Shown one piece after another: positions 1 to 49,223 of a stretch of DNA of 49,223 nt. The notes beneath the pieces are model-generated. The model searched no databases. It had not been told where the DNA came from and saw only the letters and a list, made by a program, of their open reading frames with translations. Position 1 is the first letter of the stretch, and the number at the start of each line of letters is the position of its first letter. The position numbers and the translations under genes are program-made. Origin of the DNA: a phage; sequence record NC_103567.1; one strand, given 5' to 3'.

Positions 1-137
1 AGATTTTGTGATTGAAATTGATTTGATTTGATTAGATTTGAGTAGTGAGAGAGCAGAAATAATCACACCTTGCCGATCAGAGAAAACTTTTCCCGCAAAA
101 CATCACTCCAGGCTCCGCGCTGTTATCTTCCGTTCAT

Positions 138-235
138 GGGTGTTCACAAATCTACCCGGCGTAGTTCTCCGACGGTTCTATGTGTTAGCCACACAAAAAG
201 AACAAAATAAAACTCTATATAATAATAATTAAAAC
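138..235 (+). repeat. copy A of a duplicated ~100-bp control-region element (GGTGTTCACAA...CCGGCGTAG...ACAAAAAGAACAAA...CTATATAATA)
   Basis: Aligns by eye with 28578-28675 at roughly 75 percent identity, followed in both places by TATATA-rich then GT-rich sequence. Confidence 0.7.
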
Positions 236-522
236 AGTAAGTTATCTATATATATGTATTTATTTGTTTCTATACTGTTTCTAATGTTCCATATGGTTAG
301 TGGTGGGTGATATATTGTTGATGGTGGTATTTGGTTAATATTTAGCCTATTGCGCCTGGTCTAGTGGTGGATTGAGAAAAATATATTTATATATAGGAAT
401 CCGCGAAAATTCATGAACGCATGAACAGCCAAAGAACGCGTTTTCAATTTCAAGTAAAACATTAACTTACGCTGAAAATTTGTTCCACTATAGGTATGGA
501 ACGTAAGCACACAAAAAACTAC

Positions 523-550
523 TTGACGAGAACAAATGGCGGCGATAATA
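523..550 (+). promoter_or_regulatory. sigma70-like early promoter (TTGACG-N16-ATAATA); -10 sits in the loop of inverted repeat GGCGGCG / GCCGCC
   Basis: Near-consensus -35 and -10 with proper spacing about 40 bp upstream of the ATG at 588. Confidence 0.6.
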
Positions 551-587
551 TGCCGCCACGAACTAACCAACAGGAGGATAACCAATC

Positions 588-1040
588 ATGGCAACTACCA
601 AAGAGTTTTGCGACAGCTTGCGTGAACTGGCGAAGAAGTTAGCAAGCGGAGAGCTTGATAATTACATCATTGCCGATGCTCTTATCGAGGACAATCTCGA
701 CGAGCAAGACAGGAAGAAGGTTAACGCCTCATACATTCGCACGATCATGAATCGCGTCCCTGACGTGAAGGAGATCGGAACGGTTTCAATTACTCGCACT
801 GATCCGGTTGAGGAAGCGCCAGGGTTTAAGGTGGCAATCAACCGCGAGGCAAAGCGACAGGTATTCACAAAAAATGATATTCCGGCACTGGAAAAGAGGA
901 TCGGTGAGCGAATCGCCAAGCGACTGCTAAACACAATGCCAAATATCACGGATCTGGAAGGTGAACAACTCCAGGGCGCGGCAATCGGAATTAAGCGTTA
1001 TCAGGATCTGATTAAGTCAATGGTTGAGCAAGGGGAATAA
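588..1040 (+). CDS. hypothetical early protein, first gene of the rightward early block
   Basis: 150-aa ORF; AGGAGG about 11 nt upstream of ATG; directly downstream of the promoter at 523-550. Confidence 0.75.
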   Translation: MATTKEFCDSLRELAKKLASGELDNYIIADALIEDNLDEQDRKKVNASYIRTIMNRVPDVKEIGTVSITRTDPVEEAPGFKVAINREAKRQVFTKNDIPALEKRIGERIAKRLLNTMPNITDLEGEQLQGAAIGIKRYQDLIKSMVEQGE

Positions 1041-3042: not shown

Positions 3043-3606
3043 ATGTTTACGATCAACTTGTGGGGAAGGGATTATGTTAATCCATATGTTGCGACAAAAC
3101 AGCGTTTCGTTATTTTCGACCTAGACGGCACATTGTCAAATGGTGAGCACCGCTTGCACCTGTTGCCAACTGTTGATTTGCATCTTACTGAAAGCTGGAG
3201 TGAGTTTAATCGCGCCGCAAAGGATGATTCACCATTCAGCAATAACATTTCCGTGTGCAACGCCATGTTTGACGCCGGATACCTGGTTATCATCCTAACA
3301 GGACGTAGTGATGAAGTTGAAGCAGAAACGCGAGCCTGGTTAGCTGAAAACGGCGTTTCTTTCGATTGGCTAATTATGCGCCGCGCGGAGGACAACCGGA
3401 AAGATACAGTAATCAAAGAGGAAGTTTTACGGACTATCGGACTAGATCGCATTGTCGCATGTTGGGATGACTCGCCAAACGTTATTGCACACCTTCGCGG
3501 CCTGGGCTTGACTGTTTACCAGGTAATTGACTACGGCGAGCAGTTACACGATCACTTAAAATCTCACGGCGTGGAGGAATTGAGCGATGACAGCAAAGCT
3601 AATTGA
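3043..3606 (+). CDS. HAD-superfamily phosphatase (nucleotidase or polynucleotide 3-phosphatase-like)
   Basis: N-terminal FVIFDLDGTLS matches HAD motif I (DxDGT); 187 aa. Confidence 0.7.
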   Translation: MFTINLWGRDYVNPYVATKQRFVIFDLDGTLSNGEHRLHLLPTVDLHLTESWSEFNRAAKDDSPFSNNISVCNAMFDAGYLVIILTGRSDEVEAETRAWLAENGVSFDWLIMRRAEDNRKDTVIKEEVLRTIGLDRIVACWDDSPNVIAHLRGLGLTVYQVIDYGEQLHDHLKSHGVEELSDDSKAN

Positions 3607-5552: not shown

Positions 5553-5727
5553 ATTTATTGGTTTTGTGGCATTGCTTGTGTGCGGCATATGGCTTACTGA
5601 CAATGACACTTGGCAAAGTGCTGTTGGAGGATTACTTATTTTTCTTGCTGGTGGCATGGTTGGCAGTGATGACGCAACAAATAAGAACAAACTTTCGGAT
5701 CATTTACGCAGAGAGACAAAACGATGA
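5545..5727 (+). CDS. small membrane protein (two predicted helices)
   Basis: 60-aa ORF, hydrophobic segments FIGFVALLVCGIWL and LLIFLAGGMVG. Confidence 0.5.
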   Translation: MIKFIGFVALLVCGIWLTDNDTWQSAVGGLLIFLAGGMVGSDDATNKNKLSDHLRRETKR

Positions 5728-5969
5728 ATAGAAAAATGCTGGTACGCGCCTTTGCTAAGATTGCTAAAAGGTGGGGAGACTCTAACAAATCGCCTTACAC
5801 GTTTAGCCGCTACGGTTATAAAAATGCTCGCGACTGGGGTCGCTGCATTGCGGATAACTACAACTCCGAAATTCTGGAAGATTTCGCAAAGTGGATTGAT
5901 ACGCCTTTGAAGGATTGGTGTCAATTTGACTATGACTATTTCGCAGAAGAAGAAATTTCTTGTTTGTAA
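5724..5969 (+). CDS. hypothetical protein
   Basis: 81-aa ORF overlapping previous stop. Confidence 0.55.
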   Translation: MNRKMLVRAFAKIAKRWGDSNKSPYTFSRYGYKNARDWGRCIADNYNSEILEDFAKWIDTPLKDWCQFDYDYFAEEEISCL

Positions 5970-8593: not shown

Positions 8594-9118
8594 ATGGCTA
8601 AAAAAACAGAAGCGCCAGCGGCGGAAAGTCTAAACTTTAAAAAGTTATGGAATAAGCGATATTCCGATCTGGTAGGTATTGAGATTGATAAACGCGCAAC
8701 GCTAACGCCGGAACAAGTCATGAACCTGATTGTTCAGTATTTTGAGTGGGCGGAGCTAAACGCCATTAAAGCAGGTGAGACTACATCCTTTCAGGGTCGA
8801 GTGTATCAGGATACGATTCACAAGCCGCGTATTTTTACATGGGAAGGGTTAAAGCTGTTTTGCGGTTTTTCAGGCACAGCACTAGCAAAGTGGAAACTTA
8901 AACCAGGCTATGATGTTGTTATTGAGTTTGCGGAATCGGTAATCAAAGAACAAAAATACCAGTTAGCTGCAAACGGAATGATTAACAGCACCATGATCGC
9001 AAAAGAGCTTGGCATTGATAAAGGCGACACGTTCAATATTAGCGCCAATGCTGAAACGGAAGTTAACACGGAAGAAGCAATGAAAAACGCCGTCGCAAGC
9101 GTTCTAAGTAAAATTTAA
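8594..9118 (+). CDS. terS: terminase small subunit (putative)
   Basis: About 174-aa ORF immediately upstream of the large terminase; CAGGAGGA RBS; position-based call. Confidence 0.6.
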   Translation: MAKKTEAPAAESLNFKKLWNKRYSDLVGIEIDKRATLTPEQVMNLIVQYFEWAELNAIKAGETTSFQGRVYQDTIHKPRIFTWEGLKLFCGFSGTALAKWKLKPGYDVVIEFAESVIKEQKYQLAANGMINSTMIAKELGIDKGDTFNISANAETEVNTEEAMKNAVASVLSKI

Positions 9119-9129
9119 GGGTGAATGCT

Positions 9130-10701
9130 ATGTTGATATGGGAAGATTTAAGCAAGTTAGAAAAGCTGGCTATTAAAGAATTGAGTACACACGATTTTGA
9201 TACTTTCGTTAAAATCTGGTTCCCGATCCAGCAAGGGGAAAAATGGATTCCTAACTGGCATCACCTTTATATCGCAAGAGCGATTGATGAAATTATTGAA
9301 GGTACGCGGAAAGATACGATCTTTAATGTAACTCCAGGCTCAGGTAAGACGGAATTACTTTCTATCCATTTCCCTCCGTATTCTTATTTAAAACTTAATA
9401 AGGTGCGGAACCTAAATATTTCATTTGCCGATACGCTTGTTAAACGAAACAGTAAGCGTGTGCGTGATCTGGTTAATTCGCGAGAATGGCAAGAGCTTTT
9501 CCCTGCAAAAACTGGTACAAGCAAAGATGATGAATTTCAGGTTTTAAATGACGCTGGCAAAGTTCGACTTGAAATGATTAGTAAATCAATGGGCGGTCAA
9601 ATTACTGGTAGCCGTGGCGGTTATATCACTCCTGGTATTTATTCCGGTTGCGTTACGCTTGACGATCCAGAAAAGCCCGATGATATGTTTTCGAAGGTGA
9701 AGCGTGAGCGCGGTCAGATGATAGCGAAGAACACCATTCGATCACGTCGCGCACATTCAGAAACGCCAATTATCGTTATCCAGCAGCGTTTACATGCGCA
9801 GGATATGACATGGTTTCTGATGAATGGCGGAATGGGTATTGAATTTGATCAGATATCAATTCCGGCTATGGTTACAGAGGAGTACGGGAAATCACTTCCT
9901 GATTGGTTGCAGCCGCACTTTGAAAAGGATGTGCTTTCGTCTGAATACATCGTTATTGACGGCGTGAAGTATTATTCTTTTTGGCCTAGCAAGGAAAGCA
10001 TTCATGACTTGAAAGCGCTACGCGATGCGGATTTGTACACGTTCCTTTCTCAGTATCAGCAAGATCCAATTGCTCTTGGAGGTAACGCAATTAACGTTGG
10101 ATGGTTCCAGTATTACGGAACCGGAGAAAAATCAACTATGCCAAAACCGGATCGCTTTGATTATACGTTTATTACAGCAGATACCGCTCAGAAAGAAGGT
10201 GAGCTAAACGACTACAGCGTTTTATGTTATTGGGGCATGTTCAAAGGCCGTATATATTTTATTGACGGTGTGCGCGGAAAATGGGAAGCGCCAATGTTAG
10301 AAACGCAGTTTAAAGCGTTTGTTAAACAGTGCTGGAACCGTAACAAAGAATGCGGAAACTTGCGTAAAATTTACGTGGAAGATAAAGCGAGCGGTACAGG
10401 TTTGATCCAGAATTGCCGCAAAGCATTTCCGATAGAAATTACGCCAGTGCAACGCGATAAAGACAAAGTAACGCGCTGCATGGACGCTCAGCCAGTGATC
10501 AAGAATGGTTATGTTGTATTGCCTGAATCGCATCACATGCTTGCTGAATTTCTGGCAGAGGCGGCGGCATTCACTTATGATGATAGCCATCCTCATGATG
10601 ATATTATGGATAACCTTTTTGATGCGGTTAATATTGAGCTTAACCTTGCTGATAATGCGGTTGATAGAATGAAGCGTTTAGCTGGATTAGCGAAGCGTTA
10701 A
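9130..10701 (+). CDS. terL: terminase large subunit
   Basis: About 523 aa with Walker A-like PGSGKT and the size and position expected for a TerL ATPase-nuclease. Confidence 0.85.
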   Translation: MLIWEDLSKLEKLAIKELSTHDFDTFVKIWFPIQQGEKWIPNWHHLYIARAIDEIIEGTRKDTIFNVTPGSGKTELLSIHFPPYSYLKLNKVRNLNISFADTLVKRNSKRVRDLVNSREWQELFPAKTGTSKDDEFQVLNDAGKVRLEMISKSMGGQITGSRGGYITPGIYSGCVTLDDPEKPDDMFSKVKRERGQMIAKNTIRSRRAHSETPIIVIQQRLHAQDMTWFLMNGGMGIEFDQISIPAMVTEEYGKSLPDWLQPHFEKDVLSSEYIVIDGVKYYSFWPSKESIHDLKALRDADLYTFLSQYQQDPIALGGNAINVGWFQYYGTGEKSTMPKPDRFDYTFITADTAQKEGELNDYSVLCYWGMFKGRIYFIDGVRGKWEAPMLETQFKAFVKQCWNRNKECGNLRKIYVEDKASGTGLIQNCRKAFPIEITPVQRDKDKVTRCMDAQPVIKNGYVVLPESHHMLAEFLAEAAAFTYDDSHPHDDIMDNLFDAVNIELNLADNAVDRMKRLAGLAKR

Positions 10702-38558: not shown

Positions 38559-39299
38559 ATGGCTAAGGATTTTCAGGACAAAGCAACCATTGATACTTTT
38601 GAGCCGGAAATGGATTTTCATGAACTGCAACACGGCAGATATTCAGATATTGCTTTACGTTCAGGCGGTCATTATCAGCCAGTTAGAGAAAACCCATTAT
38701 TTAAGGTTAGCGGCAACCGTTATGCAGGAAGTAAAACGCCGGACGTAGTGCGCGACTTGTGGGAAACTCCAGATGAAATTGTTGAATACCTTGCTGAACG
38801 TTACGGCAAATATGATCTTGACGCAGCAGCAACGGAAGATAATAAAAAATGCGATAAATTTTACAGCAAAGAAACAAACTGCTTAAAGCGTTGGTGGGGT
38901 AGCAATAAGCACGTTTGGTTAAATCCACCATACAGCAATCCAGATCCATTTATCAAAAAAGCAATTGAGCAGATGGAACACGGAAACCAGATTGATATTT
39001 TACTTCCGGCTGATAATTCAACTGCATGGTTTAGTGACGCACAAAAACATGCGGCAGAAATTATCTGGATTACTGGTGAAACCTGGAAGGATGAAGAAGG
39101 TCGCGAATATTCCAGAACTGGTCGAGTGGCGTTTATTTCTGGCATGACAGGTGAGCCAGTTAGCGGAAACAATAAAGGTAGTGTAATTTTTATCATGCGC
39201 CAATTGGAAGAAGGTGAGCAACAGCAAACGCACTATGTGAAGATTAGCGACATTTGCCCTTCCGTAAAAAATAAACGAGCCAAAGCGCGGAGTATTTAA
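38559..39299 (+). CDS. dam: DNA N6-adenine methyltransferase (phage Dam-like)
   Basis: 246 aa; VWLNPPYS carries the (D/N)PPY catalytic motif of N6-adenine methyltransferases. Confidence 0.8.
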   Translation: MAKDFQDKATIDTFEPEMDFHELQHGRYSDIALRSGGHYQPVRENPLFKVSGNRYAGSKTPDVVRDLWETPDEIVEYLAERYGKYDLDAAATEDNKKCDKFYSKETNCLKRWWGSNKHVWLNPPYSNPDPFIKKAIEQMEHGNQIDILLPADNSTAWFSDAQKHAAEIIWITGETWKDEEGREYSRTGRVAFISGMTGEPVSGNNKGSVIFIMRQLEEGEQQQTHYVKISDICPSVKNKRAKARSI

Positions 39300-47121: not shown

Positions 47122-47367
47122 TCATAATTTAACCTCATGATATTCTATGAATTCTTGCACATATGCGCATTCGCGCGGCGACTCTTGGCCTTTTAGCACT
47201 TCACAGCCACTATTAAACAGATAGCAGTGCTGGCAAAGGTTGCCGCCTACGTTTTCCTCAGCGATCTGAATTCCGGTACACAAGCCGCCGCCAAACCTAT
47301 GAACGAAATGATAAGCGGAACACCTGCAATTAATTTGCCTACGCTTTCTTTTTGCCGTGGTTTTCAT
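47122..47367 (-). CDS. hypothetical Cys-rich protein (uncertain)
   Basis: 81-aa ORF with 8 Cys; overlaps the 3-prime end of the HNH gene by about 29 nt. Confidence 0.35.
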   Translation of the reverse strand: MKTTAKRKRRQINCRCSAYHFVHRFGGGLCTGIQIAEENVGGNLCQHCYLFNSGCEVLKGQESPRECAYVQEFIEYHEVKL

Positions 47368-47851
47368 GAAAACCCCTGTTTATTTTTTCTCTCTCAATAG
47401 CCATGCTAGCTAATTCAGGAGAATCAAAAAGACCAATATGGATTTCTTTTCCTTCTACTTTTAATCTTGCTCTCCATTTTTTAGCTACGGAATGCCACGA
47501 AACACCGTTAAACCCTGATTTATTTGCTTTGCAATATGATTGATTTTTACCGTTTTCATTTGCACTAACAAGGCGTAGGTTTTCTATCCTGTTATCAATT
47601 CTGTCGTGGTTTATATGATCAATCTGCATTCCTTCTGGAATTTTGCCATTATGCATTTCCCAAACGATTCGATGCGCAAGATAACTTTTATCATTCAATG
47701 TTATCTCTATGTATCCATCATTTCTAATGCTTCCTGCAACTTTTCCAGCCCACTTTTTATTCCATGCAGAATCTCTATATGATCTTATGTTTGTGCGCGG
47801 CTTTCTTATAAGATTACCGCAATCATATATAAAAAAGTCGTGCCAATTCAT
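47339..47851 (-). CDS. HNH homing endonuclease with AP2-like DNA-binding domain
   Basis: 170 aa; YLAHRIVWEMHNG...DHINHDRIDNRIENLRLVSANEN is an HNH motif; C-terminal FNGVSWHSVAKKWRARLKVEGKEIHIGLF looks like an AP2 domain. Confidence 0.75.
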   Translation of the reverse strand: MNWHDFFIYDCGNLIRKPRTNIRSYRDSAWNKKWAGKVAGSIRNDGYIEITLNDKSYLAHRIVWEMHNGKIPEGMQIDHINHDRIDNRIENLRLVSANENGKNQSYCKANKSGFNGVSWHSVAKKWRARLKVEGKEIHIGLFDSPELASMAIEREKINRGFHENHGKKKA

Positions 47852-49080: not shown

Positions 49081-49084
49081 ATTG

Positions 49085-49105
49085 GTTTTAACAAAAAGTG
49101 CTATT
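49085..49105 (-). promoter_or_regulatory. 21-bp motif, class I (reverse complement)
   Basis: GTTTTAACAAAAAGTGCTATT on the plus strand; outermost leftward promoter candidate. Confidence 0.6.
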
Positions 49106-49223
49106 CATGCAGTATCAGCAAAATTACCAACGTTCATCTTAACGAACAATCAGTTCGACGTATCGACCAGGCTCATGATCCTGTTATGTGATCGTTATAT
49201 GATCAGATGATGATTGATGTGTG

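Follow-up and report, generated by a model that had tools for sequence, protein, structure and literature searches.

Phages of the genus Tlsvirus are T1-like siphophages of Citrobacter, Escherichia and Salmonella. The type phage TLS packages its DNA by the headful mechanism, and its virion DNA is GATC-methylated according to a restriction assay (PMC11447400). Digests of TLS DNA gave a submolar pac-HindIII fragment of ~6 kb (5,882 bp), diffuse headful-HindIII fragments of 5 and 4 kb, and a 2.7-kb EcoRV subfragment (PMC11447400). Position 1 of the TLS sequence was assigned to pac, the exact base being chosen because the AGATTT found there resembles the P22 pac consensus, and the same paper reported no iteron-like repeats anywhere in the genome and placed a concentration of GATC in the helicase gene (PMC11447400). 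A literature search for a base-level pac of T1 or other Drexlerviridae returned nothing beyond TLS; for SU57 the pac was given as 'not identified', and for 7WV and KanT1 PhageTerm reached no conclusion. The precedent for a Dam-regulated packaging start is phage P1, in which pac occupies 161 bp within pacA and contains seven hexamers (PMC10028697).

The window, that is, the whole stretch of 49,223 nucleotides analysed here (NC_103567.1), is the complete genome of a T1-like Tlsvirus (Drexlerviridae, Tempevirinae), as judged by BLAST of both ends against GenBank phages, in which the left-hand end of the junction was 98.9% identical to Citrobacter phage ElisaCorrea and the right-hand end 98.7% identical to Mishu and Devorator. 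In Stevie (40476/40477), in Mishu (40725/40726) and also in ElisaCorrea, the first base of the window comes straight after its last, indicating that the window is a circular map cut at the junction and that the two halves are one feature. TLS 1-656 aligns with window 1-655, and the TLS end aligns with the final 164 bases of the window. Window position 1 is therefore TLS position 1, the window was opened at exactly the TLS convention, and its coordinate origin is not arbitrary but equals the published pac assignment of the type phage. The junction lies inside one noncoding region of ~745 bp (Table 1). A preliminary description made from the letters alone had supposed a single repeat-rich block across contiguous ends; the records of the relatives bear this out, with divergent early gene sets on either side.

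Table 1. Features of the junction and of the genes discussed with it (window coordinates)
Feature	Coordinates	Strand	Basis or remark
Last leftward gene	48745-49029/49065	-	Left border of the ~745-bp noncoding region
21-nt Tlsvirus intergenic repeat copy (ATAGCACTTTTTGTTAAAA)	49086-49104	-	Left edge of the noncoding block
Variable cassette	49114-49170		Between 21-nt repeat and GATC triple; alignment
Three GATC hexamers	TGATCC 49176-49181, TGATCG 49189-49194, TGATCA 49200-49205	+	Sequence
C-free run, left part	49206-49223	+	Run itself begins at 49205, last base of the TGATCA hexamer
C-free run, right part	1-53	+	10-bp tandem units
Conserved noncoding block right of array	54-124		Holds fourth GATC at 75-78
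AT-rich stretches (~195-260 and ~375-400) around C-free G/T-rich run	195-400
Sigma-70-like promoter TTGACG-17-TAATAT	523-551	+	Serves first rightward gene
First rightward gene, TLS gp01 homologue, DUF7174	588-1040	+	Right border of the noncoding region
TerS, small terminase subunit, P22 gp3 family	8594-9118	+	Pfam PF16677, PHROG 606, PDB 3P9A
TerL, large terminase subunit	9121-10701	+	Pfam Terminase_6C, PHROG 38
Phage Dam, GATC N6-adenine methyltransferase	38559-39299	+	Pfam PF05869, E 2e-62

A search of IMG/VR with gp01 matched only Stevie, Sazh and TLS. Record OR786094.1 goes under the name 'Streptococcus phage MBBL140' (host Streptococcus agalactiae). It is a Tlsvirus of the usual kind, has the same junction block and terS, and seems to bear a wrong host label. 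The small leftward early genes of the window include an HNH homing-endonuclease-like ORF of 170 aa (47339-47851, minus strand), a homologue of TLS endZ.

In the TLS sequence, a HindIII site at 5876 and an EcoRV site at 2733 reproduce both published fragments, which places the first cut, at the gel resolution of the TLS pac map, within ~+/-150 bp (gel error) of the block, with packaging heading rightward. The T1 RefSeq record likewise begins within a TGAT-rich block of homologous sequence (CACGATCATGATTGATCTCTAATGATGAGATGTGATT / GTTGC...GTTGATGTGATTGTTGC), and its annotation gives a terminal repeat of 2.8 kb starting at position 1. A packaging start at the junction, one of two roles suggested in the preliminary description, is the best reading of the locus and had already been published for TLS, so that the location of pac given here is mostly finer detail of a known feature.

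The argument by which the exact base was chosen in TLS carries no weight, since AGATTT is common and is not conserved at that spot, and the best P22 pac match in the genome is at the shuffle level. The hexamer occurs 42 times in this genome (23 + 19), and the haplotype-B phages described below, half of the genus, read AGTTGATG at the site of the TLS position-1 AGATTT (window 1-8). Scanning the genome with the 22-bp P22 pac consensus GAAGATTTATCTGAAGTCGTTA (core AAGATTTATCTG) gave a best match of 15/22, with 10/12 in the core, which equals the shuffle level, and nothing better at the junction than elsewhere. A second AGATTT, at window 34-39, is near-invariant in 18 genomes, only ZerotoHero reading ATATTT.

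The start points of sequence records were considered as a proxy for physical ends and rejected, Sazh having been 'opened to follow T1 and TLS' by convention. The records of GS71, GS166 and GS156 (PV090992/PV090993/PV153712) do not start at TLS position 1 but at the equivalent of window position 59, which is 5 bp past the right edge of the C-free array. They are described as a TLS-based arrangement with 'Mauve plus PhageTerm validation', without published PhageTerm coordinates, and their start could be either a true PhageTerm terminus or an alignment artefact. The records of YSP2 and KKP 3830 break at window position 90.

The sequence of the junction is as first described, with three GATC sites in the stated hexamers followed by GAT-rich sequence that continues across the junction. 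The GATC tetramers start at 49177, 49190 and 49201 (spacing 13 + 11 bp), and the triple contains an 11-nt direct repeat in tandem, GTTATGTGATC (49183-49193) and GTTATATGATC (49194-49204); a repeat search returned the left half of the array as the tandem 11-mer GTTAYGTGATC x2. GATGATGATTGATG (49206-49219) directly follows TGATCA, the window starts with AGATTTTGTGATTGAAATTGATTTGATTTGATTAGATTTGAG, and the string after the third hexamer, up to the window start AGATTTTGTGATTGAAATTGATTTGATTTGATTAGATTTGAG, is GATGATGATTGATGTGTG.

Counted over the whole genome, GATC occurs 271 times, compared with 157.5 +/- 11 in dinucleotide-preserving shuffles, none of 100 of which reached 271; the TLS genome has 281. 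Many phages instead avoid GATC; the excess here is in keeping with a phage whose DNA is methylated by its own enzyme, and the Dam gene noted at the outset is confirmed (Table 1). Neither this genome nor that of TLS has another set of three GATC within <=40 bp. If 271 sites are placed at random, one nevertheless expects 2.5 triples spanning <=25 bp, with a probability of 0.91 for at least one, so the GATC triple by itself is not beyond chance. The ~745-bp intergenic region contains four GATC only, which is the genome average. In the genome-wide comparison proposed in the preliminary description, with a chance-expected triple in a region of average density, GATC density alone does not carry the case for a packaging site.

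The three GATC sites are the left three members of one array of ~95 bp and not a separate element. Nine (T/C)GAT or TGAG motifs start at 49176, 49189, 49200, 49211, 49222, 9, 19, 29 and 39, with spacings of 13, 11, 11, 11, 10, 10, 10 and 10 bp. The left part of the C-free run carries TGAT at 49208, 49211 and 49215 and TGAG at 49222, and the right part is built from 10-bp units, TGAGATTTTG (49222-8), TGATTGAAAT (9-18), TGATTTGATT (19-28), TGATTAGATT (29-38) and TGAGTAGTGA (39-48), of which Tandem Repeats Finder reported window 9-45 as a 10-bp tandem repeat, TGATTAGATT x3.7. A 90-bp block with 13 GAT and 10 TGAT, all on the plus strand, is the genome maximum (genome mean 2.08 GAT per 90 bp; highest value in 200 shuffles 10), and no other run in the genome that is free of any single base is as long as the 72-nt C-free one (49205 to 53). 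No second site of such GAT density and freedom from C was found anywhere in the genome.

Eighteen Tlsvirus junctions were aligned by anchoring on the genus-invariant core GATGATTGATGTGTGAG, which runs from 49209 to position 2. The registers of the nine motifs are kept in all 18 genomes, the third site of phSE-2 aside, while the bases between the motifs vary. GATTTGATTAGATTTGAGTAG (24-44) is near-invariant, with 17 of the 18 identical and one substitution in ZerotoHero. By blastn, a block of ~285 bp (49060 to 120) is present in 48 Tlsvirus records at 77-96% identity and matched nothing outside Tlsvirus records. A chance stretch of low-complexity sequence without function would be compatible with the GATC triple taken alone, which is within chance expectation. 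It is hardly conceivable for the block as a whole, in which the GAT and TGAT density exceeds all 200 shuffles, the longest C-free run of the genome is found, and the reading is contradicted by conservation of the register in 18/18 relatives and of the block in 48 records.

Seventeen of the 18 Tlsvirus genomes retain the GATC cores at this spacing, phSE-2 having AATC at the third array site. The GATC part of the array occurs as haplotype A, caTGATCCtgttayGTGATCGttatrTGATCA, and haplotype B, caCGATCAcgttatrCGATCAcaatatGATCAyg, which differ at 10 of 25 non-GATC positions and at none of the 12 GATC positions. By the hypergeometric distribution, ten changes would all fall outside the 12 GATC bases with a probability of 0.009, although this signal rests essentially on two haplotypes and thus on one old divergence. 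Because the flanks differ and the cores do not, the conserved element is GATC itself and not a P1-type hexamer, half of the genus reading CGATCA at the first two sites. A fourth GATC, in the context CGATCA and 97 bp off, is kept in 13 and lost in 5 of the 18 relatives.

Outside the genus the GATC triple is absent. Warwickvirus has one or two GATC in the whole intergenic region and Henuseptimavirus none, Hanrivervirus has none in the gene-proximal 360 bp that were compared, STSR3 has two that are far apart, and T1 has two at the corresponding place, separated by 10 bp. All of these retain a related core (TGATGATTG / GATTGATGT / GATGTGATTG), which in Warwickvirus, Henuseptimavirus, STSR3 and T1 occupies the same place in the genome, and several of them have TGAT or AATCA motifs at 10-bp spacing. 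Across the family it is the TGAT array that is conserved, and the GATC triple is genus-specific.

The terminase is of the headful type, with a TerS of the gp3 family (PF16677, 41.3 bits against a cut-off of 29.4; PDB 3P9A, E 2.5e-13), the start codon of which was set by homology to TLS terS, and a Terminase_6C TerL. The terS gene lies 8.5 kb downstream (right) of the block, and its product is the presumed reader of the block. TerS sequences fall into identity groups (95-99% versus 82-87%) that do not track block haplotypes A and B, and no co-evolution signal was found between TerS allele and block haplotype. If TerS reads the block, its target is therefore what both haplotypes share.

A packaging start of the P1 kind, at which the terminase would bind the block but cut it only with the GATC sites fully methylated (or the reverse), so restricting the initiation of packaging series to one replication or methylation state, would account for the conservation of the GATC cores and of their 13 + 11 bp spacing in 17/18 genomes, for the ten changes that all miss GATC (P 0.009), for the position here of a GATC triple within <=40 bp that has no counterpart elsewhere in this genome or in that of TLS, and for the two GATC 10 bp apart at the equivalent place in T1. 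It would also agree with the phage-encoded Dam, the methylated GATC of TLS DNA and the P1 precedent (PMC10028697). This reading is nevertheless unlikely. The P1 hexamer TGATC(A/G), from which the preliminary description had argued, is not conserved, with CGATCA at two of the three sites in half of the genus. There is a single cluster, and the fourth GATC, at 75, is lost in 5/18. The site is outside terS, and the terminase is of the P22 gp3 family with no shown PacA relative. Warwickvirus, Henuseptimavirus, Hanrivervirus-type phages and STSR3 keep the TGAT core with 0-2 GATC. So tight a triple is expected by chance with 271 GATC, and the conservation signal amounts to about two haplotypes.

Since the GATC cores are conserved, a modulation by Dam that is limited to Tlsvirus, with GATC dispensable in the sister genera, is possible from the comparison of genomes. 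A more specific version, in which the nine-site TGAT array would be read by a gp3-type terminase and its left three sites would have been fixed as GATC for Dam-gated initiation, is quite unlikely. If true, packaging would have come under P1-like epigenetic control a second time, in an unrelated terminase family, and the phage-encoded Dam and the excess of GATC in T1-like phages would have an explanation.

The second role suggested in the preliminary description, an origin of replication, would make the repeats initiator iterons and the AT-rich stretch an unwinding element, with GATC serving as at oriC. It accords with the helically spaced direct repeats beside AT-rich DNA (13-17% GC in 60-bp windows), with the GATC cluster, with a cumulative GC skew that turns at the junction, and with the lack of an identified origin in TLS (PMC11447400). 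However, the skew changes sign at each change of gene orientation (~31.5, 35.9 and 42.9 kb), indicating that it reflects transcription direction and is uninformative on an origin. DnaA boxes are not clustered, with one 1-mismatch match in the region and a genome total below the shuffle level, no initiator gene is adjacent, the primase and helicase genes being at 34-38 kb, and the existing experimental mapping at the locus is of a packaging end and not of replication. An origin here thus found no independent support and is very unlikely.

The 21-nt repeat of which a copy marks the left edge of the noncoding block, ATAGCACnnnTTGnTAAAA, has 19 copies in the window where 0.45 would be expected (examples at 1622, 2457, 3972, 35125 (-), 35746 (+), 48727 (-) and 49086 (-)), and the copy at 49086-49104 is ~60-80 nt upstream of the leftward gene at 48745-49029/49065. 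The repeat is annotated as a repeat_region in the Stevie record and was described for TLS, where its role was left unassigned (PMC11447400). Nearly all copies point the way the local genes are transcribed; the first rightward gene (588) lacks one and has a sigma-70-like promoter instead. In most relatives the space between this repeat and the GATC triple contains two 14-bp palindromic units in tandem (GACCGATTGGTCTA / GACCGTTTGGTCTA), reported by Tandem Repeats Finder for Stevie as TAGACCGATTGGTC x2.1 (3165-3194 of the compared stretch), and these palindromes look operator-like. The window, ElisaCorrea and CF1 have instead an unrelated cassette of the same length with a small palindrome, CGAAC-N5-GTTCG, which appears to be a mosaic swap within an otherwise conserved noncoding block. 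A small ORF at 49082-49210 (+) was rejected as a gene, as it has a TTG start and is replaced by the unrelated cassette in most relatives. No terminator and no conserved ORF were found over the array, and a search of Rfam found no RNA family in the junction region of two relatives in which it is contiguous.

Closely spaced GATC sites are the kind of substrate that SeqA binds. Control of early-operon transcription, by a regulator (of the TLS gp57 type, SeqA, Fis or IHF) that would bind the array without any packaging role, is in keeping with this spacing, with the position of the block between the leftward early genes (repeat 49086-49104) and the rightward promoter at 523-551, and with the operator-like tandem palindromes directly left of the GATC triple in most relatives. 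A scan of both strands found no sigma-70-like promoter over the array, however, the nearest rightward one being ~470 bp off, and the packaging end mapped in TLS and T1 would be left unexplained, which makes this a decidedly improbable account of the block. Because the block is situated between divergent early operons and beside AT-rich DNA, a regulatory or origin role could coexist with packaging or replace it.

On the right-hand side of the array, the genus-wide conservation of nucleotides stops near position 120. The G/T-rich run at 291-345 (55 nt) is the second-longest C-free run in the genome, and TGGTGG motifs at 301, 322 and 365 are located in this run and just past it. G/T-rich runs are found at the same place in Warwickvirus, Henuseptimavirus and Hanrivervirus, and the AT-rich and G/T-rich layout is also found in T1 and other Tempevirinae. 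Three Chi-like octamers are present here on the plus strand (AGTGGTGG at 299, GATGGTGG at 320 and AGTGGTGG at 363), and 291-376 is bordered by imperfect AT-rich inverted repeats of ~25 nt. Over the genome TGGTGG occurs 14 times on the plus strand and 5 times on the minus strand, and the one true Chi (GCTGGTGG) is at 5647.

The packaging map of TLS, the layout of T1, the GAT maximum and other anatomy of the block, its conserved register and the headful-type terminase together make this block a candidate pac, and the block formed by 49176-49223 and 1-53 is probably the pac region of this headful-packaging phage. A ring-forming TerS of the P22 gp3 type would bind the nine-motif array, the motifs of which, about one helical turn apart, would lie on one face of ~95 bp of DNA. 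TerL would then open a packaging series by cutting within the array or close to it, and a few headfuls would be filled in the rightward direction, that of gene 1 and terS. The three GATC sites, Dam-methylated in Tlsvirus, may tune binding or cutting, with no family-wide requirement for them. The comparisons show how the block is built, how far it is conserved, to which family the terminase belongs, and that the locus fits the TLS and T1 maps; TerS as the reader of the array, the exact position of the cut and any role of methylation are inferred.

The weak argument from AGATTT can thus be replaced by a testable candidate recognition element, a phased TGAT array of ~95 bp with an invariant core, which is conserved across the genus and recognisable across Drexlerviridae. 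An element defined in this way is useful for mapping termini, for T1-like transducing or packaging vectors and for choosing the point at which Drexlerviridae genomes are opened. If a Dam-gated pac did exist outside P1, it would be moderately interesting; on present evidence it is a minority possibility.

Compared with the pac sites of TLS and T1, the block has homologous sequence at the same position between divergent clusters of small genes. The likeness to TLS extends to three GATC sites (TLS 49856, 49869 and 49880), the same invariant core and 10-bp repeats, and headful packaging rightward from the block. Unlike TLS, the window has a different cassette at 49114-49170, with no functional difference as far as can be told from the sequence, and the published TLS site consists of AGATTT only, the phased array and the GATC triple being undescribed.

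The resemblance to P1 is limited to clustered GATC motifs at a headful packaging start, a phage-encoded Dam, and two of the three hexamers of the window fitting TGATC(A/G), the first being TGATCC. The window has one cluster of three, whereas P1 has two clusters (of four and three) that flank the cut, and in Pfam and PDB the only relatives of TerS are P22 gp3. P22 and Sf6 are like this phage in having a gp3-homologous TerS and headful packaging in limited series from one site. Their pac sites and that of P1 are inside the small-terminase gene, whereas the site described here is intergenic and 8.5 kb upstream of terS, and the P22 pac is a single asymmetric element of 22 bp, in contrast with the candidate phased array of ~95 bp.

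In SPP1 and SF6, the DNA of the TerS boxes wraps round a ring of TerS DNA-binding domains. Pac sites of the SPP1/SF6 type share with this block multiple short repeats, approximately helical spacing and a length of ~100 bp, no homology being claimed, and by this analogy the array is compatible with wrapping round a TerS ring as in SPP1/SF6. A pacL/pacC/pacR sub-structure is not recognisable from the sequence of the block. What is added here to a known kind of element are details not described before: the phased array of nine sites, its invariant core and the conserved GATC triple.
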